Positions 558 to 59,262 are shown, numbered from the stretch's first letter. The stretch: 64,000 bases of DNA from Bispira polyomma (GCA_965649765.1 OZ287755.1:59644001-59708000), one strand, 5' to 3'. The notes: a model not told the origin generated them from the letters alone. Numbers and translations: made by a program.

Positions 558-815
558 CTAGGGAAATACTGCTATTAATGTCAGCAGTAAGAATAGAGGT
601 TGTGACCACTGTCCTCTCTGAGCAGCAGAGCTAGTATCCTCTGTACCCTCTGTAGACTCAGTAACCTTTGTAGCCTTAGTGGACTCTGTAGCCTTATTAG
701 ACTGTAGCCTCAGTAGACTCTGTAGCCTCAGTAGCCTCAGTAACCTCTGTAGCCTCAGTAGCTTCAGTAACCTCGGCGTCACTGCATGGAGCCTCTGTTA
801 CACCATCTGATACAC
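558..815 (-). CDS. Terminal exon: TEA-repeat stalk and GPI-type signal, with a frameshift near 702
   Basis: Acceptor ttacacag at 816-823. The phase-1 frame reads VSDGVTEAPCSDAEVTEATEATEVTEATEATESTEATV and stops at TAA 697-699. The hydrophobic tail is in the frame of ORF 558..782. Confidence 0.8.
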
Positions 816-3800
816 CTGTGTAATCAAAGGGATTTAGTATTATGGTCTAATGTGGAATAACTTGTCTTACATTAATCGATAGATTATTTCTCTTTAACTC
901 TACAACCATCATAACTAGCTTTAGTGGGGCCCCCGTCTTGTAGTGGTAATGCGCTAGTCTCCTACCTCTAACATCGTGGGTTTGAATCACCACCCTAAAG
1001 GTTGGCAGTATAGACATGCTAAAGGTTGGCAGTATAGACATGCTAAAGGTTGGCAGTATAAACATATTAAAGGTTGACAGTATATACATGTTAAAGGTTG
1101 GCAGTAGAGACATGCTAAAGGTTGACAGTATAGACATGTTAAAGGTTGGCAGTATATACATGTTAAAGGTTGACAGTATATACATGCTAAAGGTTGGCAG
1201 TATAGACATGTCAAAGGTTGACAGTATATACATGCTAAAGGTTGGCAGTATAGACATGTTAAAGGTTGACAGTATAGACATGTTAAAGGTTGACAGTATA
1301 TACATGTTAAAGGTTGTCAGTAGAGACATGTTAAAGGTTGGCAGTATAGACATGTTAAAGGTTGGCAGTATAGACATGTTAAAGGTTGGCAGTATAGACA
1401 TGCTAAAGGTTGGCAGTATAGACATGCTAAACGTTGGCAGTATAGACATGTTAAAGGTTGACAGTATTAACATGCTAAAGGCTGGCAGTATATACATGCT
1501 AAAGGTTGACAGCATAGACATGCTAAAGATTGAAAGTATAGACATGCTAAAGGTTAGCAGTATAGACATGCTAAAGGTTAGAGGTATATACATGCTAAAG
1601 GTTGGCACTATAGACATGCTAAAGGTTGGCAGTAGAGACATGTTAAAGGTTGGCAGTATAAACATGCTAAAGGTTGACAGTATAGAAATGCTTTTACCCA
1701 GCCCTACATGGGCTTATACGTCACTTGAAACACATCTACATTATCCACAGGTCATATTTCGAATTCATAAATATTTTGTTATACATGTATGTAACCAATT
1801 GTAAACAATGAAACAACTATCTAAGTAAAATTTCCTTATGCTTCTCCCATGCTCGTATAAGATACTTTGATAAATCTTTTTGACAATTTTTGATAATATA
1901 TATATAAATTTATCTTTGTTGTCCATGGATGAAAAACCTTCAAAGTGTGATGCTATATTACAATACATTTGTTCTCGTAAAGAATTATAAATTGTACAAA
2001 TACATAAAAAGTGAAATTCATCTTCGACTAATTCGCTTGAACAAACTAGACACAGGCGTTCATCTGGATGCAATTTTCTTGGATTATCTGAAGTTAGATA
2101 TTAAACCGGCCAGTTTCGATTCAAAGTATTCCAGACCAAAATTGAGATAATAGTGAACTTTGGTATGTTGGTAAACAACTTTTTATATAGGGTTCAGTAG
2201 AAAGATTTGTTTTAAATAATTTTAGTGTTCGAAGTTTTGGCTTAGCAATAACCTCCTGTTGCCACTGTCTGTCAGAAATTTGATGTAACCTTGTTGTTGC
2301 TTCAGCTATATTGCATTTGTTTTGATGTAAAAATAGTTGCTCCATTTTTAACAATTTCAGGATATTTTTGACATCGGAACACCAGTTGTTTTAATCGGAC
2401 CAGGCATGATCCCATTCAAAGGTTATCCTAGTTAACCTAGAATTGTTCATATTTAGAATTCTGTTCCAAAACCGTAAAATACTAATAAAACGTCTAAATC
2501 TCCCTGGAAGCTAACCCATGTCTCCTAGGATAGCAGCAGTCGGAACAAAGCTATGTACACCTAGAAAGTACCTCATTGCCTTATTTTGTACTACATTTGG
2601 CGAATTTCTTTTGGTATAACCCCAAATATTGTATTTGTTTCTCTTTAGTATGAGCCATACAATTACCCAGACATTAGAACATTTTGCATAGTCCTAACGG
2701 GGGATATAAATGTATTTTAAGATATTACTTTTCATTTTAGAGCCCTAATTGATAGTAATAATGTGTCAGTTCAACTTACACCAAGTTCCTGCATCATTGG
2801 CCACCTCTCCATCTGGACAATCTGCAAGTATAGATACATCTTTTTTCAAAGTAATTGTACAGTACAAATTACATTCTAAATGCAATCATACATAAGTTTA
2901 ACATGTTTGTAGACATCTACCCAAATTGACATATTAACCGCTTAAAAATCAAGTTACAGCTTTATTTACTCTACTTCCATGTCAAATATACACATAGTAT
3001 ATTGCAGCCATCCTAACTCCACTGTGTAACCGTCCTACTTTGCTGCTCGCCTTTCCTTCAATAACCTTAAAATGGGAAAGAGACTGGACCTAGAGCTTAC
3101 TGTATTGCTGGCCCTATGTCTTGGAACAGTCTCCCTGTTGGACTTAGATCACTTTCCGGTTTTAGCAAAAAGCCTAAAATACACATCTTCAAATTTGCTG
3201 ACCCCCCCCCCCCCCCCCTAGTTCCCTTCATGTACATCCCCACATCCTTCCTTTCGACCCAGTTATGATTTTGGATGGTTAACCGATTCTGTTGTTGCAC
3301 TTTGGAAGATGCCTGGCATCATCAATAAGGCGCATTGTTAATCCAAAACAATACAATTGTGTATCATCTGTTTGGATACACTAAATATGAAGTCACAGTT
3401 GACTTAGTTCATCCAGTTTATCCACAAAATGCCCAACAATAACAATATTGATTGGATTACATCACAAAGAGGAGAAGTAAGATTCTTCTCTGGGACATTC
3501 TCAACCCACCTTCGCAGGCAGTCCCTGCACCATTTGGCACCTGACCGGCCTCACAGGCATCACAGGAGGATGTTGATGAGCATTGGCTACAGTTTGCCAT
3601 TGTAGTTGAGCATTCTGGAAAGCAAGATCAGGGCTTGTCTTGACAAAAATTCTTAAACTTGCACTCATGCTTAATAGTTTATAGTTACACTCTTTAAAAG
3701 TTGATATTATCAAGACCTTTAGTCTGAATTTATGCTTAAACTAGTGTGAGAATGTGGGTTCACCAAGGAGGTGGCTTAGGAAGTAAGATTATAATAATCA

Positions 3801-6800
3801 ACTCTGGCAGTGTAAGCTGATTAACTTTTGCTTTGGAGAGCTTTCTAAATGAAATTTTTATTCTAGCATCTACAAATATTTTTGTATTGATTATTTGAGT
3901 GAATGCAATGTGAGTTTGCACTTAAACTACCCGTTTGATTGTACACTCACATGGGATCAATACAAATTACCACAATCTCATGTGTGATAAAACTGAGATC
4001 ACATGTTTTATAAATGAGTTGAAATGTTTTGTTTAATACAGCCTCAAAATACAAACATTACCTTACAGAAAGAGTGCATAAAAGTTTGCAGTTGTGTAAA
4101 CTGGTTGCAATTTGATGAGTGACAGTCTCATTTGAAACTATATAACTTTCACAGTTCTCTCAAATAATAAATTATGTTTTCTATAAGAAAATTCAATTCA
4201 CACTGTCTCTGAGTTTAAAAAAAATAAAATAGGAAGTTCTGTTGAATGAATGAATTGTACTATTTGTTTCGTTGTGACATGCAATACAGTGAAGTGTTCA
4301 AACCTTGACAGGCAGTCTCGTCATCGGTCTGGGTTTTCCCATCACTGCAGGCTGTGCAGGCAATGTCATAGGTGTAGGCATCGTAGTTAGTTGTGATTGT
4401 GTAGCATGCAACACAGTTCTCTATTTCACTACATGCTGTATACCATATATACAAAGCACCAAGTTTTAACAGGCATCAAATACAGTTAGATCATCACCAT
4501 GACATATTCAAGTATTTAATTTACTGTTGATACACTGTGGACAAAGCTTTTATCATAGAGAAACATTTAAAAGAAGTGAAAACTATGCCACCTGGATTTA
4601 GTAAACACTGAAAGGACATAGACTATATCACTACACGTTTCCTATGTAAAGACAAACTAATGTTTGTAGATATTGGCATGTCTATTAAAGTTTTACTGTG
4701 GTGAATATGTTGTTATTTCAGGCGATCTCCATCATGGTATGCCACCTTAATACATGTTGAAGCAAGTTCTATGCCAGGGCTACGTGTGTGTTTTATCCTG
4801 AATAAAGTATGTACTACTTTGGGGGCCCAATTCAGAATTTTGCTAATCTTTAGGTGGGATATAGTCCAACTAAAGCTCCCACGTTTGGCAGTCAGTCTTA
4901 ATATAGGTTAGCAGATCTTAAGGTAGACTATACCATCTTGAGATTGACTAGCAAAGTTAGCCCATTATGTGAATGACTAACACAGCATAAGATTTTAAAT
5001 GTTTAAAATTTAAAAAAACACACATATAATTTGGGATCACATAATTTATATTTCATTCATTATTTATGAATAGTATTATATGCACTTTAGTCACTAGGAA
5101 TTGCCAGGCATAATGACATCCATATAAGGCTAAAATCTATTTCACATGAATCAAGTGTGTAGTATTAGATTGCAAAAGAGGTCAATGAACTTGTATCACC
5201 AAAGAAACATAAAATACTGAATTAATACTGGACAAAACTAGATAGGCCACACCACTTGGGATCTATAGCAAACATGATATATTTAAAATTGCCTAAGTTG
5301 AGTTTTAATATGATTATATAACAACAGATCTTACAATGCACAAGGGTGTATCTATCAGTGCTCCTGTCACAGCCACTCTCTACGTAAGTTCCTTCATCAT
5401 CCAAACAGGCATTAGGGCGATTTCCAGACACAGACGCCAGGATAAGGAAAAACAGGGAACGTGTCAGTGTGTGAGTGGGATTGATACAATTGATACTCAC
5501 TGCAGAGTTACCATCGGAAAACCTCAGCGCACTGCCTGCAACAGTATTCAGGGTGTTACCCATGGTACTCAGGACCAGTTGAGTAGTGGATCCTGTCAGT
5601 TGAATTTTAAATTGGTCTGCAAAATAAATGAAAGGTCCACATCAAATGTTGTAAATAGAAAAAAAAAATATAAATATCAAGTTACAGACATGTGATTTAT
5701 ATGAATGAATTGAAAAGGAAACATGAAAAATGTATCCAATATATAAGACTACAGTCTATCATCACATAATTGTCAAATTCTTTATCAGTACAGTATTTAT
5801 GAACAAAATTGAAAAACTGCTACTGTACCATAAAAACTGTACCATAAACTCCATAGCTTGTGATTAAAAGTGATTCCTTACCTTATGTTGAAATAATGAA
5901 TCTAACGTTGATTTACAGAATCTGGCATCGAAAATCGTAATAACTTATTAGAATTGTAGCCCTGAGGTTGTATTCTAGAAAATCTTAGTCTCAAACTCAA
6001 TTCTGAAGTACCCATATTCCTGGGTAGGATGAAGTTAAGTAATTCTGACTGCATATTTGAATTCAGCACTAAAAGCCCTGTTACCAAGACTGATCACATG
6101 TATAGGTTATTTTCCCAAAACAAGGGCTTTCAGAATAGTCTTCATTTGAGTTGAGTATGAATTTGAGCTTGAGTTTTTTTCGGAGAATATGGACCCTGAT
6201 ATCTTACTGTATTGGCCTTGTACAGTCATCACAGTCAACTCTGCACAGGCACTGCCATCCCCTGCTACTACTAGATTTGCGCCGTCATCCATGCATTTGG
6301 TGAAATCGTGGAGATAAAGGTAACCTTTCAACACTGAGAGAAGAAAACATTGGTCAATAACACAAATGGATACGAGATAGGTGACAGTAATCACTAAATA
6401 ACAACTAGTGAATTCGACAACGTGACAGTAATTACCTTATAACCAGTGGGTCCAGCAATGTAAAATTATTTCATAACTAACACCTGATGTCAAACATAAA
6501 ATCAATCCAGTTATTAGGTAATTAATATGAGATAAATACCAATATGATGATAAATAACAATTTAATATCTGGATAGTGATATTAAATACCAAATTCAACA
6601 GGATAATATTGTCTTAAATAGTAGTTTAAATATATTTTTAAAAAATATTTATAAAAAGGAAAGCAATTCCATAGCGTCACTCTATGTATTGAAATACATG
6701 CAGATTTTAAGTTTGCTCTGGCATACAACATTTAAAATTTCTTTGCTTGTCTAGTGAACTATTTCTTACCACAATTTATACATAAAAAGATTGAATATTA

Positions 6801-7464
6801 TTAACAGACAAATTTGTTTTTGCTTTATACAATAAAATAATGATAAGATAATAAATAATATCTTTTAGTTTGCTTTATACAATAACATAATGATAATATA
6901 TAGTTAACAATATTTGTTTTCAAACAATTATACTGGCCTTGTTTTGCAAGATGGCAATTTGTGAAGTGCAACCTTTTATTGGTTATACACATATTTTAGA
7001 ACAACAGAATAAATAAGGCTCAATTATTGGATAATGTAAAACACCTGGTTTGTGGGCTCATGCTTCACTTGTTTTTATGACATACTTTTCTATTAGAATT
7101 CTTTTGCACATAAATATTGAATTTTTCTTAAGAAATGAGATTTGGAGTGCAACACTGAGCGGGATATAAAATTATCCCCTTAAAATTTAAAAAAAACAAA
7201 CTGTTGAAGTGTTTAAATGGATAAGTTGAATTTACTCATTTCTGAAAATGGAAAATTCAGCTAAATCTAAGACATAATATAAATAGTACTATTAAGCGAT
7301 ACTACTATACAACATTTACAATTTTTACAACAATGTCAGAATGCAGAAATATTTGCAATTTTTATGTACTTGGAGATTATTTACACCAATGTTAAATATA
7401 AAATTACTGTCATACCTATTAATGTTCCGGGGCCTCCTGCAAATACAACCACACCCCAAGTAAT
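558..7464 (-). CDS. Multi-exon gene for a putative GPI-anchored surface protein (beta-trefoil-like domain + CxxC Cys-rich modules + Thr/Glu/Ala stalk + GPI-type signal); frameshifted in the last exon in this sequence
   Basis: GT-AG exons on the minus strand: 7416-7464, 6208-6333, 5335-5616, 4304-4435, 3510-3614, 2780-2821, 558-815. The five internal exons are 126, 282, 132, 105 and 42 nt, all phase 1-1, and join without stops: ITWGVVVFAGGPGTLI-VLKGYLYLHDFTKCMDDG...ACLDDEG...-SCSEIENCVAC...CTACSDG...-ECSTTMANCSQC...CDACEAG...-DCPDGEVANDAGTW-CVSDGVTEAP(TEA)n. The C-terminal frame ends SSAAQRGQWSQPLFLLLTLIAVFP*. Confidence 0.8.
926..995 (+). mobile_element. tRNA-derived SINE head
   Basis: A-box-like TGTAGTGGTAAT and B-box-like GGGTTTGAATCACC; similar to the SINE heads at 51369 and 54860. 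Confidence 0.55.
996..1690. repeat. 24-bp minisatellite, ~29 copies (TAAAGGTTGGCAGTATAGACATGC)
   Basis: Tandem units read directly; accounts for the 8-aa-periodic ORFs 847..1665, 987..1214 and 1016..1804. Confidence 0.97.
1695..2630 (-). mobile_element. 5'-truncated, decayed non-LTR retrotransposon (RTE-X/L1-type ORF2 C-terminus)
   Basis: Fragments IWGY...VQNKAMRYFLGVH...AAILGDMG and KPKLRTLKLFK, plus the CCHC zinc knuckle RLCLVC...VEDEFHFLCIC..YNSLR; stops and frameshifts present. Confidence 0.85.
2780..2821 (-). CDS. Internal exon (CPDGEVANDAGTW), truncated Cys-rich module
   Basis: ttgcag acceptor, gtaagt donor, 42 nt, phase 1-1; resembles the end of the preceding module (GQVPNGAGTAC). 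Confidence 0.75.
3005..3360 (+). mobile_element. L2/CR1-group LINE 3' end (family A)
   Basis: Matches 40170-40547, including the WNSLP..LRS coding remnant and the GAAGATGCCTGGCATC 3' stem-loop. Confidence 0.85.
3510..3614 (-). CDS. Internal exon, CxxC Cys-rich module (CSTTMANCSQCSSTSSCDACEAGQVPNGAGTACE)
   Basis: tttccag acceptor, gtgggt donor, 105 nt, phase 1-1. The correct frame is not the one in the ORF track. Confidence 0.85.
4304..4435 (-). CDS. Internal exon, CxxC Cys-rich module (CSEIENCVAC...CTACSDGKTQTDDETACQ)
   Basis: tacag acceptor, gtttga donor, 132 nt, phase 1-1; lies within ORF 4260..4454. Confidence 0.85.
4822..4975. mobile_element. Degraded MITE related to the GGGCC(G/A)TATTCAC family
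   Basis: Starts GGGGCCCAATTCA and ends ...ATGTGAAT, resembling the termini at 20144 and 59263; heavily diverged. Confidence 0.35.
5335..5616 (-). CDS. Internal exon, C-terminal two-thirds of the beta-trefoil-like domain
   Basis: ttattttgcag acceptor, gtaaga donor, 282 nt open in phase 1; same frame as ORF 5222..5563. Confidence 0.75.
6208..6333 (-). CDS. Internal exon, first repeat of the beta-trefoil-like domain (LKGYLYLHDFTKCMDDGANLVVAGDGSACAELTVMTVQGQY)
   Basis: ttttcttctctcag acceptor, gtaaga donor, 126 nt, phase 1-1; within ORF 6107..6394. Confidence 0.8.
7416..7464 (-). CDS. Short exon, probably part of the signal peptide (ITWGVVVFAGGPGTLI)
   Basis: Strong polypyrimidine acceptor tttttgtttgcag and gtatga donor. 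A second ttgcag acceptor inside the exon (7437-7442) would give a 21-nt phase 1-1 exon. Confidence 0.6.
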
Positions 7465-17943: not shown

Positions 17944-19258
17944 ACCTCTCACACACTGACAGTCCCTGTACCACACAGACATGTCACACACTGACCACAG
18001 TCCCTGTACCACACACACCTCTCACACACTGACCCAAGTCTCTGTACCACACACACCCGTCACACACTGACCACAGTCCCTGTACCACACTGACCTCTCA
18101 CACAAAAAACCCCAGTCCCTGTACCACACTGACCTCTCACACACTGACCCCAGTCCCTGTACCACACAGACATGTCACACACAAACCACAGTCCCTGTAC
18201 CACACACACCTATGACACACTGACCCTAGTCCCTGTACCACACAGACCTCTCACACACTGACCCCAGTCCTTGTACTACACTGACCTCTCACATACTGAC
18301 CCCAGTCCCTGTACCACACACACCCGTCACACACTGACCACAGTCCCTGTACCACACTGACCTCTCACACAAAAAAACCCAGTCCCTGTACCACACTGAC
18401 CTCTCACACACTGACCCCAGTCCCTGTACCACACAGACATGTCACGCACAAACCACAGTCCCTGTACCACACACACCTATGACACACTGACCCTAGTCCC
18501 TGTACCACACAGACCTCTCACACACTGACCCCAGTCCCTGTACCACAGAGACCTGTCACACACTGACCCAAGTCCCTGTACCACACACACCCGTCACACA
18601 CTGACCACAGTCCCTGTACCACACTGACCTCTCACACAAAAAACCCCAGTCCCTGTACCACACTGACCTCTCACACACTGACCCCAGTCCCTGTACCACA
18701 CAGACATGTCACACACAAACCACAGTCCCTGTACCACACACACCTATGACACACTGACCCTAGTCCCTGTACCACACAGACCTCTCACACACTGACCCCA
18801 GTCCTTGTACTACACTGACCTCTCACATACTGACCCCAGTCCCTGTACCACACAGAGATGTCACACACTGACCCCAGTCCCTGTACCACAGAGACCTGTC
18901 ACACACTGACCCAAGTCCCTGTACCACACACACCCGTCACACACTGACCCCAGTCCCTGTACCACACACACACCCGTCACACACTGACCACAGTCCCTGT
19001 ACCACACTGACCTCTCACACAAAAACCCCAGACCCTGTACCACACACACCTATGACACACTGACCCCAGTCCCTGTACCACACAGACCTCTCACACACTG
19101 ACCCCAGTCCTTGTACCACACTGACCTCTCACATACTGACCCCAGTCCCTGTACCACACTCACCTGTCACACACTGACCCCAGTCCCTGTACCACACTGA
19201 CCTCTCACACACTGACCCCAGTCCCTGTACCGCACTGACCTCTAACATACTGACCCCA
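17944..19258. repeat. ~38-bp minisatellite (~34 copies; CACACACTGACCCCAGTCCCTGTACCACACAGACCTCT) with a 7-monomer higher-order repeat
   Basis: Tandem units read directly; the AAAAA-containing variant recurs at ~18104, 18371, 18638 and 19021. Confidence 0.95.
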
Positions 19259-24793: not shown

Positions 24794-27700
24794 TTAAACA
24801 CCAATTTCAGAAAGAAACACTCCAGTGAATGAGTTCCTGTCTGGTCCATACATGTGGCTGTCATCAAATACACATCTCACCCAGACAATGTCACCTTCAG
24901 CACACTCAATGACAGCCACACCGGCAATGCCTTGTTCATAATCTCCATCATTAGTAGCACCTACAATAATAATATTACCAATAAGGTGAACAACAAGGCA
25001 ATACATGTTAGCAAATTATAAGATGTATCTGTGCAAGTGTGATGTCACACAAATGTTTGTATATTTAGTTATTTGTTGATTTTCTTCAGATACCTCACAT
25101 TGATATTTATTTAAATGTTGCCCAACTGCACCTAAAGTATTTTTCAGATATACACGGCTGCTTTCACCACAACACTGGTCTCTCCCCAATGTGGGTTTGA
25201 ATTGACTTTGTTCATTTATGTAGGAATGTTTGGCAGGTACTTGTGGTGGTTCACGGCGCTTCAATACTGATTTATTTGCCTATTAAATCTGGCTATTGTG
25301 ATATTACCTGTGCTGTTAAAAGTACCAAAGACCAAACTAAATATATATTCATACAACTTCAGCATATCAGTATGGATTACCAGTAAATCAAGTATAAACT
25401 ACATCTTGCTTACGGCTTACTTTTACCTTTAAGCCATACATTTTTTTTTATAAAAAGACACAATATTTTTTATTATTTGTATTATTATAACATCATAATC
25501 ATTACATTTGATACAATTTCCATCATATTTTTCTGTGTTGCAAAAATACCAGATACAAGATACAAGGTTATACTTAAATTTGACATCATACATAGCAAAT
25601 GCAGAAACACTGTACAAATTATACTTAAAAGTAATAATAGACCAATACATTGTAACATTATACTTTCACATTATATTAATACTGTATGCATGTTTACACT
25701 CCAAATAAACCTGTATATGTACATGTAGTTATACATATATACTGATATTCTGCAGTGGTATTCTGCATCTGTCTACAAATGCAGAGTACCTCCAGGTTTC
25801 AAAGTGGGCATACAAAAGTATTTCCTACTCACTTACAATGAGGCAAACAAAACACAAAAGAGTGTTTTAATGAAAGGTTTAGCAGTTATTTTTAGCAAAA
25901 CACAACCCTGCAAACTACAAAATATTCCTGCTATATGCTATATGAAGTGATTAACCTCTCTGCATGATACTAGTGTACTGAGTGGAGTATTGGTGGTGTA
26001 GTGGGTTCGGCCCTATCATGTATGTTGGTCAGTTGTCAGAAAACCTTGACCAACTACCCTGCTCTGAATACCTCCACCAAGCAATGTCAAATACCAAACT
26101 ATTACCCGAACTCACCTCTTAGCAGATACTCATCATTTTTCACTAAGTCGATGACCATCCTGTCTAGTTCCTGGGAATACACTGTACTACTGAAGAGATA
26201 TACTCCACTGATTGGGCATGTGAACAAACCTGTGTGTATGCGACCATTGCATATAAGCATCAGTTGTATTTAATTACTGTTTATGTTTCTTCTGATAAAC
26301 CCACTAAGAGGGATGGATCTAGAGTTAATCACTAAAAACACTTTCTAAGTTTAGGAAAAAACCTCAAACCTATCTCTTCAAAATCGATTGCCCTCTTATT
26401 TCCCGCTCTGTACACCCTAACCACCTTTTCTTACCACCTGAGTCTTATTTTCACATTGGTTCATTGATTATGTCGCTTTAGAAGATATCTCACATCAATA
26501 ATGCACATTACAAATGCAAACTACAATACAAAAAGTGTGTATCTGCAGTCAATAATTCTGGTCCCATATTCTGTAGCTCAGACTCAACTCAAGTGAAGGC
26601 TATGTGAAAATATTTGCCTTTTGTGGAAATAACCCAAAATTCAGCGCAACATAGAATTTAATGCTCAATTCCAAGAGCAGTCAGATTTTGTTTTGCATTG
26701 TATTTTGGAAATTTTTAAATGTGTCATTGTTGATGCTAAGCATAAATAAGGAAATAAGTCAACATCAAAATGAATGGCGTAGGGTGGATGGACAAGTGTT
26801 AAAATATGGGGTATTGGTTGTGATCTAAGCTGAAGGTGCCTTAGTAGATTCTTTGATTATTAAGGATTTACATTATTATGTAATATTCCTTATTACATTA
26901 AGGATTATTTTCAATTCATTGCTACTGATAAATAATTGTTCGTGTAAGCTGTGTAAGAATATATGTTTCCTCTTATTTAAAGTGTTACAAATGTATCTAG
27001 CCTTATCTATATATTTACAGCCTTATGTGTAGTGGTTCACATGCCACCTTAATTTGTGGTGTTCTGGTGGAAGCCTGATGAAATGTGGTATACCCAAGCC
27101 TCTATCTTAAATCAGGTGAGTGGCAGTTTCAAGTGCTGGCCGGCTGTATTTGAGCTTGCAGACAAACGCGGTGAATATATAAATTTCAGTAACTACAAGA
27201 ACACCAATGCATATACATGTACTTTGTTTTTAACCTTTCTTGTCTTTTAACCAATTTATCTGACAGAGAAAATACTTTACCTTCACTGGGATTATAAGCA
27301 TTGCCCACATTGGCCAATACTACAGGATATTGTACTCGATCCCCCTCATCGTAAATTCTGTCTACAAAGGCTCTAGCTGTAAAGGCTATCTCCCCAGCTT
27401 TAGACACATTGTCTAGTTTTCACGAAAGAAAAAAAAAATATTCAGAGACATCACAATTTTTGCCATCTGGCCACAAATATTGTTTTATTTGTTATTTGTT
27501 GTTACATAATGTCTCATGACAAAGCAAAGACATAGAGGCAATTATACCATGATATATGAGGCATATGAAGACCAATACCAAGTTTTTATACTCTTCTACA
27601 AAAATGTGATTCTTGTAGACGTAGATTTACCTTGCATTTGAACCTATCATAAGCGGTGACACAAACAATTTGTATAGCATGTATGCATGTTTGGCATGCA

Positions 27701-29143: not shown

Positions 29144-30215
29144 CTATTCGCCTAGCAGTAGGTGGGCCCTCCCCACAGAGCCTCTATTCAACCCTCCCAG
29201 GGGAAGGTTGAAGAGAGGGATCACATACCACACAGCCCAGGGTTCGAACCCCAGAGTTACTACTATGAAGTTCATGGCCACCTTATGGGCAACATTAGTG
29301 GACTGTAAATAAGAGTAGATGGCGTCACTTCGCCAATTACTGTGAATCCTAATATCTTGGAAGGACACATTAGAGTTAAATGAAAAAGTGGCACCACTAT
29401 GCCTAAACGTGTGAAAAGTATAATGTGCAGGGTTCAAGCCTATGGTATTAAGGATAGAAGCCAAAACTTGGCGTACCTTAGTGGCAAGGAGTGGCACAGG
29501 GTGGTGGAAGTAGGCAATAAGAACAAAGGGGAATTATCCAAAGCAGGAACCTGAAGCATCATATACTTGAGGGAAGTAATTGGGCATAAGGTAGAACCCG
29601 AAATAGCAGGAATTTGAACCACCTGATACTGATCATATTTTTGCATGGTTTTAGACCACTTTATTGTAATTAAAGCCCCATGCCACAACCAAGTAATGTC
29701 ACCTATTTGTAACTGACGAATGTTAGCTGCATTAGCATAACTATAAGGCACCATATTAGAAACACGAAAGAAACCAAAATATGAAAGCAGAAAGACTGCT
29801 TTATGTACAAAACCAATTTTAATGCTGTCACATTGCAACACAATTTGTTTCAACATGTCAATAGTAAATACTCCTTTAAATCTAGGTGAATATGGTGAAC
29901 TATTAGCAATAGCTTTTAGCAACAGCCTAACTTTGAAGTGGTTAATACCTTGTAATGGGAGTTCATTAACATAAAAGTAGTGTCTGACAACTGAGACATA
30001 ATTCAGAATGGTAGGATGTTTTAACCCATTTTGGTGGAGAAATTCAATAAATATCAACACAAATAAAAGGGAAGTATAATTTGTAAGACCCAAAAAGTAA
30101 AACAATGCCAAAAATAATTTGAATTGAGAGGCATAAGAAGCTTGTGTCTTCTTGGCATGTGATATAGGAAGTCTTGTCAAAGCAGAATCAACTAATGCCC
30201 CAGCCGAAAGAGAAT
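29144..30215 (-). pseudogene. Tyrosine recombinase (phage-integrase family) of the retrotransposon
   Basis: GFFRVSNM, KWSKT, LCPI, HTFRHSGAT, HSNWRSDAIYSY catalytic boxes; frameshift at ~29470-29500 between ORFs 29440..30180 and 29144..29497. Confidence 0.92.
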
Positions 30216-30309
30216 CTGAAATTATATACCAAAATTTGGTGGAAAATGAAGGTCAGAAATTTCCCACCAAGTAGAATCAGAAAATTGTTCATATTTAGAA
30301 CTGGATATT

Positions 30310-31951
30310 TTACAACATAAGAATATCGTCCCGTGTACGGTCAGTATTAAGCACAGAAACAACGGCCTCATTATCACAACAGACCCTAATCAGTTTACTT
30401 TTAAACTTGTCTTTCCACACATTCAACATGACCCAGATGTTAACCATTTCTAAATGGACAATAGTATAATACTCCAAGCCCATAACGGGATATGTGGCAG
30501 CATATATATCCTGTCCACTGACAGCCCCCACACCTGACAACGAAGCGTCAACATAAACTACAAACTGAGGGAAACTCTGCTTGTGGATAATCACAGTACC
30601 ATTGAACAAATCTAAAAATTTGTTAAAGCAATTAAGGTCTTCTTTGAAACCTTGATCTAATAGAATGGGTTCTGAACGAGCATTTCTCAGACAACGCAGT
30701 ATACGATTAACAAACTGCCTTGCTGGCCGAACGCACTTATGTACAACAACCGGCCCAATAATGATTGCAAGCCTCTGTGAGGTTTTAACCTTAACAGGTT
30801 TTAATATCTTGCATTTTATCATCAGATATTTTAATAATACCATTCTACGCATCTACTAGAATGCCCATACAGACCGCACTAGATTGTGGTTTTTTAAACT
30901 TTTTCTGGTTGATTGGAAAGCCTAAGTCAGTCATAAGTTGATATAACATGTCAAAGACTTTATCAGCAGCGTCTTTATGCTGGACACCAATGACGTTATC
31001 GATGTATCCAAATATGGAATATCCACATTGACACATTACATGACGCAGGAAATCAACCAAACGTTGCATTAAAGCTGAACCGTGCTTGTATTCAAACGCG
31101 ATGGAAGCTTCCACATATGTGACGTCATTCCACTTTAAGCCCATAAGGTTATAGTCATGAGGATCAATTCGGAGGTTCCTAAACACGCGACTGACGTCAA
31201 TTTTATATATATGAGCGTCAGGGCCAATATTAGCAATCTGATCCACAATATTATCAATAGACGGATATGTAAGGATAAAGCTATCACCATCATAGACGTT
31301 ATTCAGAACACAACTATTGACAGAAGTCTTTTCAGGAAATGACAAATTTACAATAATAGGACGAGTGTCGTTAGACTTGGGTCTAGAAAGAAGAGGGGAA
31401 AAATGCATAACGTCAAATGGATTAACTGGGAATGGCCCAGCCATAGACTTATGAGCTATTTCCGTTTGAAAGTACACGTCCACATCCCTGGGATACCGGG
31501 TGGCCGACATATGATTTTGAACATTTGAATAAAACTGAAAACTTGATTGATCCACACAAAGGGGAAAGCCAAAAGCAAGGTAATCATACCGGACACTATC
31601 AGTGTAGTCCTACAGTAACTGAAACCATAATGGAAGGTTAAATTCAGATGGAACTTTAATATGTGCACCTCTATAATTAGAAGTACCGGTTTTTTTCACT
31701 ATAGCATGTGCTTTACACACCAATTCATTAAAAGATTCAGCAGATATCTGAGAATAGGTTTTTGAAATATAATACTCAGTGGGGGCCACTCGCATAAACC
31801 CAAAAGGCTGTCGTGTTTGCACTTTGTTATTTGAATAAATAGGGACCACGTGTTGGGAACCTTGATTATTTACAACAGGAACAGTACACTTGCTAGGAGT
31901 TATACTGTTGATATCAACAGGCACGTTATGCACTGGATGTGTCTTAAGCAA
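30310..31951 (-). pseudogene. Reverse transcriptase + RNase H of the retrotransposon
   Basis: SPLLSRPK, RPIIVNLSFP, YPSIDNIV, KIDVSRVFRNL, GYIDN (decayed YxDD), then YVDASLSGVG, IVHLEMVN, CDNEAVVSVLN; split over four ORFs. Confidence 0.92.
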
Positions 31952-32459
31952 GCCATTATCTGACTGAGAGTCATCATCCGAGTCAAAATCAGATTACAGA
32001 CTATTACACATAGAACTATTATGTACAATATTCATAACACTATTTTGAACCACATCACGACTGGTATAACTAGCACTGACGCCTTTGGCTATGTTATTAC
32101 AATCTACTTGTAGAGCAATATTAGTATTATCACATTTATTATCGCCAAAGTTCGGCCTACTACTACCAGACAACTAATCTAGTGGTTTGTTACTATTTAC
32201 AGGTAGCTCAGTATAATCATTTTGCACACCATTAGAAGGGAAATGCTCAGGGCCAGTATTCTGTTTAATATTAGTCTTACAACATAAAATTTGATCAGCT
32301 ACAAATTTAGTGCTCCAAAAAACCCTTGTGGGAATAAAATCTATATTTTTGCCAACTTTAGTATTAGCCGAGACAAATTTAGAACCAGAAGAAGTGAATA
32401 TTCTACTTTTAACTTTGCCCCAGCATTGCTTCCAATTAGTTTTTTGCCTGTTTGTCTTT

Positions 32460-33800
32460 GATTTTCCTGTTACATGTGATCTCAGTGTGATTAAAAAATC
32501 TTTTGATCAACCCAAAACAGTAAGCACAACTATGTTTTTGGAGTATGTTATTAGTCACATGGTCTGCCTTGTAACTACATTGACCAGTATTGTAACTCGG
32601 ACAAGGAATTTCAGAAAGATTGTTTTTTGCAGATTTAGCCTTTGCATTGTAAATGGGATATACAGCCCTTTGAGTATACCTGCTTCAAATAGAAGCCACC
32701 TCTAATTCATTTAACCAGGTAATTTTGCCTTTCTTCATCTCCTGTAAAATAACCTTATGAGCTGTTTTAGCTGTAAACCAATTGGTCTCCTGGGCGTCTT
32801 GGAGCAATTGGTGGCCATACTTAGTCATATTTTGTTTTGCTATGGGATTTTGCTCTTCTAAAATGCAACCCAGGAGACCTTGACAGAATTGGATAGGAGT
32901 GAGATCTTCATAGGAGGGCATAGCTCTATCTGGACCAAGGCAGAACTCATGTGGCCAATTTACATTAACTTTCACAACAGTATCACCCCCCCCCCCCCCC
33001 CCCCCAAATAACCCTGATTTAAGTTTATTACCTTTACTAAACTCGCAATGTTCGTGTCTGTCTACGGAATCGAGCTGCTGTAGGTGCCTGTCCGCCTGGT
33101 GCTGTAGTGGTAGGTTGTCCCTCAGGTACGACATGCTGGGGACCACTCCCCTATCAATGCCATCAGACTCAAATGTTTGATTGTTCATGGGTCTAGCTCC
33201 CATTCTACCATCAGCTGGTGGAGATGGCACATACCCCCTACGTTGCTGGCTCACAGGTGTAGGTGGAACTGGTGTAGGCAAGGCAGCAGGGTCAGGGGTC
33301 ATCTGGTTGGTTAACAAATGTTCAGGTCCCTCTGATGGTCAGCCTTCACCTGGTTCACCTGGCCCTTCAGTCTCTGCAGATGACTCATGATGGCTTCGAG
33401 CTTCGCCTCACTGGTACACTGCACACTTGGCCCGGGCTGCACACTGCTGGCTGGCTGGTCTGGTCTGATCCCTGGGGTTCCCTCGTGGAGGAGAGGTCAC
33501 ACTGGTGGTCTGTTGCTGGTGGTGGGCTGTCTCGGCCTGGGGAGCTTCATCAGACTGCTGGGTCTCAATCAAAAGTTGGCTTTGTGTCAATGAATATATG
33601 TCATGCGACACACCCTGTGGTTGGGCACTAGGGATTTGAGCGTCACCACCAAGTTCAACACCTTGTGTTGTCATTTCGTACAGAGAGCCCAGATCTCCCA
33701 CCACAAATGGACACGCCACCCCAATGGGTTTAACGTGATTAAGATCACACTTGGAATAATAAGCAAGGTTTTTTGCTTCCCTAGGGAGTGTTTTCTTCCT
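32460..33800 (-). pseudogene. gag-like ORF1 of the retrotransposon
   Basis: N-terminal KCDLNHVKPIGVAC, Pro/Gln-rich middle, VNWPHEF..PSYEDLTPIQFCQG...W..AK.AH, and a C-terminal Cys/His finger PCPSYNTGQCSYKADHV....HSCAYC......H.E..C at ~32605-32470 (shifted frame). Confidence 0.8.
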
Positions 33801-38706: not shown

Positions 38707-40547
38707 CCGCTCTCCCCATAAACCACTGCCTTACTTTTTTGACCAAAAAATTTTTTATAGAAAAAATTAGCAACATTCGTGGCGCCTTCTTAACGATACA
38801 TCACTTCAGTCCTCCAGCCCCAGGATATAAGGTTTGTAACCTGTTTCATTTCAGTACACTGTCAGAGTTTGAAGTTCTGAAACTCATCTAATCCTCTACT
38901 ATTAAATCTTGTGAATTAGATCCCATCCCAGCAGTTATTCTAAGTCAATGTCTTGACATTCTAGTCACACCCATAACAAACATATTAAATTTTTCTCTTA
39001 GGGATGGTGTTCTTCCTACCTGTTTCAAGACAGCAAATGTAACTCCCTTGATTAAAAAACAAGGGCTTGACAAAAACCAGCTCAAAAACTACAGACCGGT
39101 GTCAAACCTCAGCTTCGTCTCAAAAGTTATCGAGAAAGCTGTAGCTCAACAAATTTCTGACCACCTTAACAGACAAAACATTGAAAATTGACACCAGTCT
39201 ACCTATAGAAAATTTCACTCTACAGAAAGTGCTCTTTTTTCCATCAGTAATGATATCAATCTTGCACTAGACCGCAACGACACAGTGGCCCTCACCCTTC
39301 TGGATCTCTTAGCTGCATTCGACACTATTGATCATGTCCTGCTTTGCGACACTCTCAAGCAGTGGTTCGGTATAAATGGCAGTGTCCTTGAATGGATCAG
39401 ATCCTACCTTACTCTTAGGACACAAAGAATTACATTAGATGATCACCTACCATCCTCCATAAAGCTACCATATGGAGTACCCCAGGGATCCGTCCTTGGC
39501 CCTCTACTTTTCACCCTTTATACCCATCCTCTCAGCACTGTCATCAATAAACACAGTATAAAACACTACATGTATGCAGATGACACTCAAGTCTATCTCT
39601 CTCTCAATCCACAAAATGCAAATACAAACATAGACCTACTTGCAGACTGTCTGTCTGATTTCCAGGCGTGGATGAACTACTCCAAACCAAAACTTAACCC
39701 TGACAAAACAGAATTCATCCTCATAGGAAACAAGAAAAACAGTAGACTCCTAATATCTTTGTTTCCCATCTCCATGCTGGGAAAAGACATATTACCTTCC
39801 GAAAATGCTAAAAACCTGGGTGTTACTTTCGATTCAGCTTTTTCGTTCGATACTCATATTGCCAACATCTGTTGCTCCTGCTATTACTACATATGCAACA
39901 TCAAAAGAATCAGAAACCACTTGTCCATGGACACAGCGAAAACTGTGGCAAATGCCCTTGTGAGTAGCCGCATCGACTACTGCAATTCTTTCTTGTACTG
40001 AGCAAACAAGTCACACATTAAAAAGCTCCAGTCTATCCAAAACTACCTATGTAGGGTCATTTTTCGCATGGGTTGTCGCACAGACGTCACTCCTTACCTC
40101 AAAAAATTTTATTGGCTGCCTATTGGCCTTTTGTTTAAGATTCACGTTACTACTTTTAAGGCTGTAGTCACTCAACAGCCCCCCTACCTTGCCTCTCTTC
40201 TTTCTTTCAGTAACCGCAAGAGAGGCAACAAACTCTCGGTCACTTCGGTCAGACCAATTAGAAAGGCGGGATTGAAAGCGTTCTCCAGTGCAGCTCCACA
40301 GTTATGGAACAGTCTCCCAGTCGACCTCAGATCAGTTGACACACTTATCGGTTTTAGGAAAAAGCTGAAAACCTATCTTTTTAATCTTGCCTACCCACCT
40401 TAGCTTCCCTCGTGCACGCTCCCACTTCCTTCCTTACGACTTTGCAATGTCCATGGACTTAATGATGGGACCAATGATTCTGCTGTTGCGCTTTAGAAGA
40501 TGCCTAGCATCAAAAAAGCGCGTTAAAAATCTATAATAATAATAATA
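38707..40547 (+). mobile_element. 5'-truncated L2/CR1-group LINE (family A), best-preserved copy
   Basis: [23 protein letters not shown] 39285..40001 (AAFDTIDH, GVPQGSVLGP, YADDTQ), ORF 40068..40403 (WNSLP..LR..FRKKLKTYLF), 3' stem-loop GCGCTTT..GATGC-CTA-GCATC..AAAGCGC and (AAT)n tail. Confidence 0.96.
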
Positions 40548-44135: not shown

Positions 44136-44679
44136 GGTGAATCGATATTCACAAAAAGCTATCCACAAGAGAGTTAAGACCAAGTTTAGTCTCAAATTTT
44201 GTCTCAAAGTTAAGATTCGATGGAAAGTATTTGAAGTATTTAGCAAGAAATCTAAAGCATTAATCTCTGTAAATGGAGGTCAATATCAGTTTTATATTTT
44301 CAAATGAACTAGAAATATTTCATAAATTGGTTCCTGCTCATATTATTAAAGTATTTTATAAATAACAACTAAAACATACTTAAGATACTTCCACATAACT
44401 CAGTTTTGTTGTGCGATGATCGGCGACTTCCCAATACCTCTGTGCGATTGTCGGCGTCTAGTCTGAGATCGCTGTGTGACAATTTAAAGACTAGTCGATG
44501 TTTGCCGCACGGTGGTGGCAGGTCCGTTGCAGATCCCTCGGGGAACATATTGTTAGGGGGTATAAATACTGGTAGCAATGCTACAGCTGTTAGTATGAAA
44601 TAGGTTATTGAGCAGTTAACATAGTAGTTATAGATACTAGATAGACAGTAGTAGGATAGTAGTTGCATAGAATATAATA

Positions 44680-45927
44680 ATGGCATTTTTCGGTCCATCT
44701 GCAGTAGGTCAAATGCTGGCGGCGAGAAGGCATCGGCAGCAGGCACCAGGCCTAGTGTTGCTGGCCTACCTCAGGAGGAGGAGGCGTAGGAGTAACAGGC
44801 AGTACTGGGTAAGGCCCTGGGTCAGCAGGCGCTTGCAGCTTGGTGACCATGACAATCTTATGGTGGAGCTGGAGATAGAATCACATGGTGATTTTCTGAA
44901 CTACCTGAGGATGGAACTAGCAATATTCCGAGAGTTGCTGGACAGGATCACCCCCCGCCTGATGAAGAAGGACACCAACTGGAGGCCTGCCCTACAGCCT
45001 GGTATGAAGTTGACCATCACGTTGAGATATCTGGCATTGAGTAACAACTACCACAGCCTGAGCTATGCCTTCAGAATGCCCCACAACAGGATTTCTTTGT
45101 TTGTGAAAGAGACATGCGAGGCCATAGGGGAAGCCTACCGTCCCCAGTAGGTGAATCTCCCCACAACTCCAGATGCCTGGCATGCAGTGAGAGACAGATG
45201 TACAACCAAATGGAACTTTCCTCATATTGTGGGTGCAATCAACGGGACACACATTGCAATCAAGGCTCCTAAGAACTCTGGCTCAGTGTACCACAACTAC
45301 AAGGGCTTCTTCTCCATCATCCTCCTTGGTGTAGTCGATGCAGATTACCGCTTCATCTTTGTAGACGTCGGCAGAAACGGTTCAACATCGGATTGTTCCA
45401 TCTACAACAACTTGGACCTGAAAACAAAACTGGACAATGACACCCTGGGTCTACCACCGGCTGAGCCACTTCCAAATAATATTCCGGGCATCCCTTATTT
45501 CTTCATCGGTGATGATGCCTTTCCCAACGCAACATGACAGATGAAGAGAGAATATTTAACTACAGGTTATCTCATGCTCGAAGGATTGTTGAGAATGCCT
45601 TTGGTATACTTGACAATACGTTTCGCGCCCTGCTGAATACTCTTGAACAATAGCCAGAAACTGTTAACTCAATAGTGTTTGCATGCATTTGCTCACACAA
45701 TCTAATGCACAACCGGTATCCAGCTTTGCAGAATGCGGCAATGGTTCGTGAGGGAAACTATCATTTAAGTTATTCCTGTAGACTGGAGAGATGAAGCTGT
45801 CTTTGCATAGATCCAGAATGTCAGGGATCCCACACAGTTTTCACATAGGGCCAAGAGACAGAGGATATACTTAAAACACTATTTCAATAAGGTTGGTGTT
45901 GTATCATGGCAGAGAGACATGATTTAA
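44680..45927 (+). pseudogene. Harbinger (HARBI1-like) DDE transposase, disrupted
   Basis: RR..WVRPW, F.NYLRM, KL.ITLRYLA, WNFPHIVGAINGTHI (first D mutated to N), YKGFFSIIL, FIGDDAF, FNYRLSHARRIVENAFGIL; TAG at 45148-45150 and a deletion/frameshift near 45540. Confidence 0.92.
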
Positions 45928-57310: not shown

Positions 57311-59262
57311 TCAATTACGTTAAAGAGTTACTCAAAGTAAAATTCATGTCCTCTGGAAATTTACACAGACAGTGTAGATTCAATAAACTGAAGCTGCCAA
57401 AATGTACCACTAAATCAGGCTTAATGTATTGTTGTCTCCCACTGATTGCTGTGGGCAATTATTTGATTACACTAAAACTTTAAATATAATGAATTTCACT
57501 AGTTGTGTTTTTTGTAAGATGTGTCAAACATCTGAAGATAATTATATGTGAGACACCTAAATTATGTAAATACTGTTGAAGAATGTATATATTAGTCATA
57601 AGTGTTACCAATGGGTATATTGCGTGCATATTTGAAATATATTTTAATTGTATAGACAACCAGTGTTAATATTGTCAGCTTAGAAAACGGGCCATTTCAA
57701 TCCATCACAGCTATTTACTTTGTATTTATATAATCAGAGCACTGGGCAGCTATAAATATATATTGGTGTGCTTGACGTTGTGGCTCTGCTCTCGCAGCCC
57801 AGTTGTGATTAGCTATTAAATATGTTTCAGGAGATTGGTTTAAAATATCTCTTGGGTGAATGGTGGATTTTAGTAAAATATAAAGTCCCATGCAGCACTG
57901 GTTTACACTATAGATAGTCTTAGTTATCCTAATAAAGATGTTGAAATTTAACTCAATTAAGTAAAACTCTTGTAGATAAGCTAATGTACAAACAATGTAC
58001 CTATAACCTTCTGTAAAAATATTTTCGAAATTATTTCTAAAATCCACAGTTTTTGTAGTATTTTGCAAACACTGTCATTTCAGCTCATAAAAAAGTCAAT
58101 GAAAGAATAGCATTTACAGCTACACCTTCAGAAGACAGAACTTACACTGTTGGAGAAAAGATACAGTTCTTAAATGTATTAACAAATATGGGAGAGGCCT
58201 ACAACCCTGAAACAGGTACTGAATCCCAGTATTTTCTGCAATGGAAAACTGCTTATTCAAAATACCTTTCATAGTTATTTTTACTAAACCGAGGCCATTA
58301 ATACTAACAATGAACTATTCTGAGTACAATTTTTAACATATTGCTACCTTATTGCTGCAAAAAACATAACCTCTTACAGCACAGATATGCTTGCATAATG
58401 CACAGAAGCTTATAAAAATAAATGTTTAGTTAATATGTTTCTTTTATATATATATTTTTCCTGATGTTTAAACTGCATACAAGGGGGTCGTATTCAAACT
58501 CTTAACAAACTCGGTAATTTTGGGAATTGCAAGACATGCAATACCTCCTTCACTTAAACTAATTCACCAGCCATTTCTTCAACCCAAGTGTTATTTCCGA
58601 ATAGATTTAAATCTTTGGCAGGTTTATCTTTCAGCAATTCTATTTTGATGGGCATAATAAGGGATACATTTTAATTTGGTTTTATTCATAGCTATATATC
58701 TCCTTCTTTATATATTTCATCTATACTACAATATATAAATAGTAATTGAACTAACATACCACTTACTACTTACAGGTATATTTAAATGTCCTGTCCAAGG
58801 TATGTACTTGTTTAGTAGTACAGTCTTTACTGACCTTGAAAATGCAATGAGGTTTGCAATAAAATAGAGCCAGGGAGAATTTCTGAGGGGTGAGAATATA
58901 TTCTTTGTTTTATTTTGAGCCATTGTCATTGTACGGAATCTTGTTCAAAAATAGATACAAACATTGATAAAAATGTTAACATCAACTGTTTAAAACAATT
59001 AATAATTTGGAATAATATATATGTCACATTTTTGAAAGTGGGGCAGTGTACTGTCTCCTCTCAAACACGTGTTAACAAAAATAATGTTTCTAAATCAATT
59101 CGAATTTGGGTAACCTCGCAAAACAAAGTTAATTATATAGCTGTTTTATTAATTTTACTGATGATGACATATATTCTATTATATTATATAGTTGTCACTG
59201 TGGAAAACATTGTTAAAAAAAATCTAACACATATAGAACTGTCACAAATGGCTAAAGTTCTG

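Follow-up and report, generated by a model that had tools for sequence, protein, structure and literature searches.

Two questions are raised by a locus in the genome of Bispira polyomma: whether seven short exons form one gene and, if so, what kind of protein that gene encodes. The window analyzed here is a stretch of 64,000 nt (GCA_965649765.1 OZ287755.1:59644001-59708000, corresponding to G000:C8:59644001-59708000 of a 1.035-Gb assembly), for which a first-pass annotation had proposed a multi-exon gene at 558-7464 with a lectin-like head, a stalk of cysteine modules and a glycosylphosphatidylinositol (GPI)-type anchor. With somewhat more confidence than doubt, we arrive at a modified reading: the window gene belongs to a family with at least 33 heads; GPI anchoring is predicted for the proteins of this family, which likely carry a beta-trefoil binding head on a furin-like CxxC stalk, and a frameshift would make this particular copy either secreted or newly dead.

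A multi-exon gene under purifying selection

On the minus strand, reading of splice sites and frames yielded seven exons of the gene, each bounded by AG and GT, separated by six introns that are all in phase 1 (Table 1). The seven phase-compatible exons of the first-pass annotation were therefore recovered, but their compatibility does not extend to the GPI-type tail, as the spliced reading frame runs through 284 codons before meeting a TAA at codon 285. The head is indeed ∼136 aa long (136 aa exactly), and the two motifs reported for it, KCMDDGA and ACLDDEG, are found in its two exons. The gene is not complete within 558-7464: the first exon begins in phase 0 without an ATG, and repeated start-exon searches did not find in the window the ATG exon expected upstream of 7464. 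Short hydrophobic phase 0-1 exons are also present in other paralogues, and for paralogues A and Q6a/b a plausible ATG exon was identified; from its own hydrophobic exon, the window gene is predicted to encode an N-terminal signal peptide.

Table 1. Exons and frameshift of the window gene, listed in the direction of transcription
Feature	Position	Strand	Description
Exon 1	7464-7416	-	49 nt, phase 0-1; length and phase as in paralogue A; probably encodes the second half of a signal peptide
Exon 2, head exon a	6333-6208	-	126 nt, phase 1-1; carries two invariant Cys and KCMDDG; predicted to form the first trefoil subdomain
Exon 3, head exon b	5616-5335	-	282 nt, phase 1-1; carries a conserved Cys pair and ACLDDEG; predicted to form the second and third trefoil subdomains
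Exon 4, first six-Cys CxxC module	4435-4304	-	132 nt, phase 1-1, long form
Exon 5, second six-Cys CxxC module	3614-3510	-	105 nt, phase 1-1; standard repeat exon of the family
Exon 6, short Cys exon	2821-2780	-	42 nt, phase 1-1, two Cys
Exon 7, in-frame part	815-697	-	Thr/Glu/Ala-rich stalk of 9-nt repeats, ending at the premature TAA 699-697 (whole exon 815-558)
Frameshift	698-704	-	one 9-nt repeat unit two bases short; from repeat parse, contigs and the open paralogue A
Exon 7, out-of-frame remainder	558-696	-	remaining part of the stalk, followed by a GPI-type signal with small residues, a spacer, a hydrophobic end and a stop

The closest comparison is provided by paralogue A (G000:C1:6310304-6320033 (+)), whose exons of 49, 126, 282, 132, 105 and 42 nt match the first six of the window gene, and whose last exon is open and reads into nearly the same tail. 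Over 245 codons, the two copies are 62% identical, with a ratio of non-synonymous to synonymous substitution rates (dN/dS) of 0.50 (bootstrap 0.34-0.70); the ratio is 0.46 for the head and 0.27 for head exon a. Since such identity and dN/dS are not expected of chance open reading frames (ORFs), the window gene is, as judged from sequence, a real multi-exon gene. Using paralogue B as outgroup, we assigned 16 synonymous and 26 non-synonymous changes to the window copy alone, at ∼3.4 non-synonymous sites per synonymous site, which together with the dN/dS indicates purifying selection on this copy through most of its history.

A family of variable heads and exon-counted stalks

Iterated genome searches identified 25 exon-b and 23 exon-a peptides that could be aligned, in addition to four uninspected places, two further heads found by profile and another two by eye. 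There are at least 33 heads on 10 contigs, and fresh queries were still yielding new members. Pairwise identity of the exon-b peptides is low (median 24%, range 11-99%, 300 pairs), and their conservation across the family is limited to the Cys pairs and hydrophobic core columns; both Cys of the window's exon-a head are kept in all 23 exon-a peptides. At three loci (C6 73.3 Mb, C7 16.1 Mb and C13 32.3 Mb), the exon a+b pair is present twice, with six to eight Cys exons in between. This recurrence fixes the boundaries of the head domain, and we infer that each double-head locus is one gene.

The standard stalk exon is 105 nt long, in phase 1-1, and encodes six Cys in the pattern C-x(5-6)-CxxC-x(n)-CxxC-x(12)-C, all six being invariant in 22/22 aligned modules. 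A profile of these modules had the furin-like region of R-spondin-1 as its best solved-structure match (E 0.0046) and retrieved eight database proteins at E ≤ 0.001, two annotated as variant surface protein (VSP) and two as Furin-like_2. The Pfam scan covered single modules, for which PF15913 was matched by 1/22 (E 0.042, below the cut-off) and PF03302 by none of the 22. The modules probably work like furin-like or VSP repeats. The top match of the profile (E 1.7e-14) was a 200-aa metagenome protein, P0007, which combines three CxxC modules with a hydrophobic tail at its C-terminus and has no trefoil-like head. That the modules resemble this type and lie one per phase-1 exon agrees with the first-pass annotation; in the window gene there are two six-Cys modules and one exon with only two Cys.

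As had been anticipated, paralogues differ in module count, from 2 six-Cys exons in the window gene to 37 and 40 after a head at two other loci. At these two loci, C7:24.34-25.01 Mb and C12:23.36-23.41 Mb, almost identical CxxC exons of 105 nt form very long arrays; within the C7 region, module matches at six spaced places suggest a tandem cluster of such genes. Because every module is bounded by phase-1 introns, exon duplication keeps the frame. Tandem duplication of exons could change both the length of the stalk (2 to ∼40 modules) and the number of heads (1 or 2), and the disulfide-bonded stalk would set the distance of the head from the membrane.

A GPI-type terminal exon, comprising small residues, a spacer and a hydrophobic end, was recognized by hydropathy filter and by eye in 21 of 27 stretches, with a short polar extension in two of the 21. 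Attachment through GPI is accordingly predicted for the family, whereas the anchor proposed in the first-pass annotation is not supported for the frameshifted window copy. The six stretches without a usable tail are the window, Q6b, and paralogue B, G11a, P4 and H12, for which no terminal exon was found. In Q6b (G000:C6 ∼15398950), a 238-nt deletion removed the whole GPI-type tail and placed a stop directly after the small-residue site; its neighbour Q6c, 99.8% identical, retains the tail. Paralogue B (G000:C1:23.67 Mb) has a frameshift in exon a and has lost one Cys of the second module, its later exons were not found, and it is likely a pseudogene. Two near-identical members (98% in exon b) lie in inverted orientation at G000:C5 2.22 Mb (+) and 2.34 Mb (-). 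Birth and death of members would describe the turnover of this family.

The window copy has lost its tail to a frameshift

In the window gene, the hydrophobic tail ending at 558 sits in a different frame from the upstream exons. The cause is one unit of a 9-nt Glu-Ala-Thr repeat that is short by two bases. Splice sites were listed up to 8 nt (≤8 nt) from each exon boundary, and none of them provides an evident alternative that restores the frame of the tail. The window copy has no in-frame omega site, spacer and hydrophobic end, all of which fall beyond the stop. An AATAAA lies ∼400 nt beyond this stop. The out-of-frame tail is still 75% identical to the in-frame tail of paralogue A over 24 codons, with a dN/dS of 0.27 (0.06-0.87), and since it is this well conserved, the lesion is likely recent.

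An error of the assembly, or a single allele of a heterozygote, in an otherwise ordinary anchored member would also account for the shifted frame, the more so as it lies inside a short tandem repeat. We consider this improbable: 480-960 is spanned by one contig in each of 3/3 DNA runs with zero differences and zero gaps relative to the assembly, which speaks against a consensus error, although the three runs come from one study of at most two samples, possibly the source of the assembly itself, and contigs drop minor alleles and may thus miss a second, intact one.

If the frameshift is genuine, the mRNA of the window gene would yield a soluble head with a short stalk. Stops in the last exon generally escape exon-junction decay, and as the premature stop lies in the last coding exon, this mRNA would likely escape it as well. 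A soluble product is thus plausible. About as likely, the above account of the family holds while its window member is no more than a pseudogene or null allele of recent origin, producing no useful secreted protein. The frameshift is present in both assembly and contigs, the state of the tail suggests that it is recent, the start exon was not found, and lesions in other members, such as that in exon a of paralogue B, indicate that decay is common in the family. Conversely, exons 1-6 have no lesion and their splice sites are sound, the window branch has been under purifying selection, and the stop is in the last exon; Q6b has also lost exactly the tail, though two cases do not show enrichment.

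A probable beta-trefoil head without the ricin signature

The predicted fold of the head matched many lectins in structure-similarity searches, including 6lf1, but with tied Z also trefoils of the FGF, MIR, fascin and protease-inhibitor types. The head is hence a probable beta-trefoil according to this model; an earlier one from three sequences had a predicted local distance difference test (pLDDT) score of 47, and its fold search returned mixed beta proteins. Three-fold repetition, which had been claimed for the head, is weak in the sequence, where shuffles reached the observed score in 4/100 cases for alpha-gamma, 50/100 for alpha-beta and 1/100 for beta-gamma (6 columns only).

Along the lines of the first-pass annotation, the heads could be R-type lectins that truly bind sugars, in which case the family would supply anchored receptors that recognize patterns in microbial glycans. 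Lectins are numerous among the fold matches, the first and the third subdomain each have a Cys pair resembling those of ricin-B domains, and the clade of the window gene retains C-x-D in both of these subdomains. Moreover, non-canonical trefoil lectins, the mytilectins, occur in lophotrochozoans (PMC8878817). Nevertheless, this reading is unlikely. A QxW in each subdomain is the signature of R-type lectins (PMC7317968), and, as the first-pass annotation had noted, the motif is absent: it was found in 0/48 exon peptides of the family, although an aromatic residue occupies the matching third-subdomain column in 20/25 exon-b peptides. The sugar pocket of R-type lectins is formed by Asp and Asn with a stacking Trp (PMC12948311). 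The Asp after C-x is kept in the window gene, yet only in 4/23 exon-a and 5/25 exon-b members, and no Trp or Asn was seen at the pocket positions expected from a ricin register set by hand. Lectin function can therefore not be read from the CLD-type motif. Neither PF00652 nor PF14200 matched at E ≤ 1 in the 25 + 23 single-exon peptides, fragments that reduce sensitivity; other Pfam matches were scattered and weak, the best being IgGFc_binding (3/25, at E 0.0011). The trefoils that are not lectins, matching at tied Z, weigh on the same side.

We instead favor heads that differ between members in what they bind. In trefoils, strands are conserved and turns variable (PMC9062101), and in line with this view, loops that vary on a conserved core could give each member a different binding partner. 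Heads with a constant core and constant Cys pairs would thereby likely recognize different extracellular partners, glycans or proteins, without a classical ricin-type galactose site. A structural role is somewhat more doubtful still than the R-type lectin reading: in a glycocalyx, cuticle, mucus or mineral matrix, acidic disulfide-rich rods would bind cations, and head diversity would reflect relaxed constraint instead of recognition. The isoelectric point (pI) is 4.1-4.4 in 23/25 exon-b peptides, the window stalk has 16 acidic and 1 basic among 93 residues, and the arrays of 37-40 modules look like protist coat proteins. Against this, head cores and Cys pairs are kept across very divergent members, and the window head is less acidic (pI 5.1). 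Were the heads inert coat components, the family would be of moderate interest.

Finally, and more speculatively than any of the above readings of head function, the family could be a protist-style variable surface repertoire in an animal, with dozens of GPI-anchored, highly divergent and non-canonical trefoil heads that make up a new family of recognition domains, exon-counted CxxC stalks that present them at different heights, and soluble decoys produced repeatedly when the anchor in the last exon is lost, serving self/non-self, gamete or microbe recognition. As inventories of lectins and immune genes rest on Pfam- or PDB-type matches (PMC8878817), at least 33 heads missed by single-sequence Pfam and PDB searches would be absent from them. 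The family would also supply naturally occurring QxW-free trefoils that can be tested as a set, and would clearly illustrate how duplicated exons can tune the length of a receptor.

Neighborhood of the gene

The first-pass annotation had placed the gene next to C1q-domain genes. We found two Pfam fragments of this kind, both in short stop-bounded frames: 26105-26269 (-) (E 1.9e-6), ∼19 kb from the gene, and 58739-58864 (+) (E 8.8e-4, under the cut-off), ∼51 kb off. The two are similar and probably decayed. Neither fragment had a match at E ≤ 0.1 in 101 fetched 10-kb stretches, a weak test. With only two distant fragments and no match in those stretches, a C1q link was rejected, and the neighborhood looks incidental.

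The last intron contains a 24-bp minisatellite (990-1690), with long spurious ORFs on both strands, and a broken high-copy repeat of very high contig depth (1700-2700), whose frames resemble the end of a long interspersed nuclear element (LINE) reverse transcriptase. Interrupted frames at 29144-33338 (-) presumably derive from a retrotransposon of the DIRS/Ngaro type, as they look like its reverse transcriptase, RNase H and tyrosine recombinase, and those at 38892-40403 (+) and 44671-45537 (+) presumably LINE-type reverse transcriptase and Harbinger-like transposase. A GC-skewed tandem repeat with units of ∼35-40 bp occupies 17950-19250.

Comparison with known systems

No described family was found for the window gene, consistent with the suggestion that it is undescribed. 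Relatives of the head outside this genome were found neither at E ≤ 0.01 nor at E ≤ 1; large collections were queried with one sequence or a 3-sequence exon-b profile, and because these queries are shallow, 'orphan' status is a weak claim. Six representative-set matches were rejected as stretch-wise matches to long repetitive proteins. From the ESM Atlas came no more than leads, to unnamed clusters whose recognition scores were low (0.89 and 0.93), and a PDB sequence search with the head returned nothing useful. A trefoil head, CxxC stalk and GPI signal in one chain were not found in the literature searched, whose coverage excludes subscription journals; the combined features led to nothing but reviews on fertilisation proteins. 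Beta-trefoil, furin-like repeats and GPI signal are each known; what appears new, at the level of predicted domains, is their arrangement in one chain, expanded to a sizeable family.

Among known proteins, the head most resembles R-type lectins, including mussel SeviL (PMC7317968; 6lf1), in having ∼130-140 aa in three ∼40-aa parts and a predicted beta-trefoil fold. It differs from them in lacking QxW, a family-wide Asp and any Pfam or PDB sequence match; furthermore, SeviL is a free 129-aa protein (PMC7317968), whereas in the family the domain is borne by a CxxC stalk that ends in a GPI-type tail. Mytilectins likewise come from marine invertebrates and are beta-trefoils in which the canonical R-type signature is missing, but a signal peptide is absent from most of them, fusion to a pore-forming domain is frequent, and the parts of their descriptions cited here mention neither CxxC stalk nor GPI (PMC10744619, PMC8878817). 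The head had no sequence match to solved chains at E ≤ 10.

R-spondins have two furin-like repeats plus a thrombospondin domain. Their repeats (PF15913) are the best solved match of the module profile, single family modules being under the Pfam cut-off. With Giardia VSPs (PF03302), which the module profile retrieves, the family shares surface proteins built from many successive CxxC modules. At their C-terminus, Giardia VSPs have a transmembrane segment and a CRGKA tail, an end of a type found in 0/21 family terminal exons examined. Entamoeba Igl, the intermediate subunit of the lectin, has such module runs too and is described as GPI-anchored (PMC11537071). Both systems are from protists, and neither is described as having a trefoil head in its CxxC chain, whereas in the window family each module has its own phase-1 exon. 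Similar in design is also Entamoeba HgL-LgL, in which a beta-trefoil is displayed with a long Cys-rich chain at the cell surface; it consists of two chains, however, and LgL has QxF motifs, a demonstrated sugar site and no GPI anchor (PMC12948311). No sequence relationship to the family was seen, although no search aimed at one was made.
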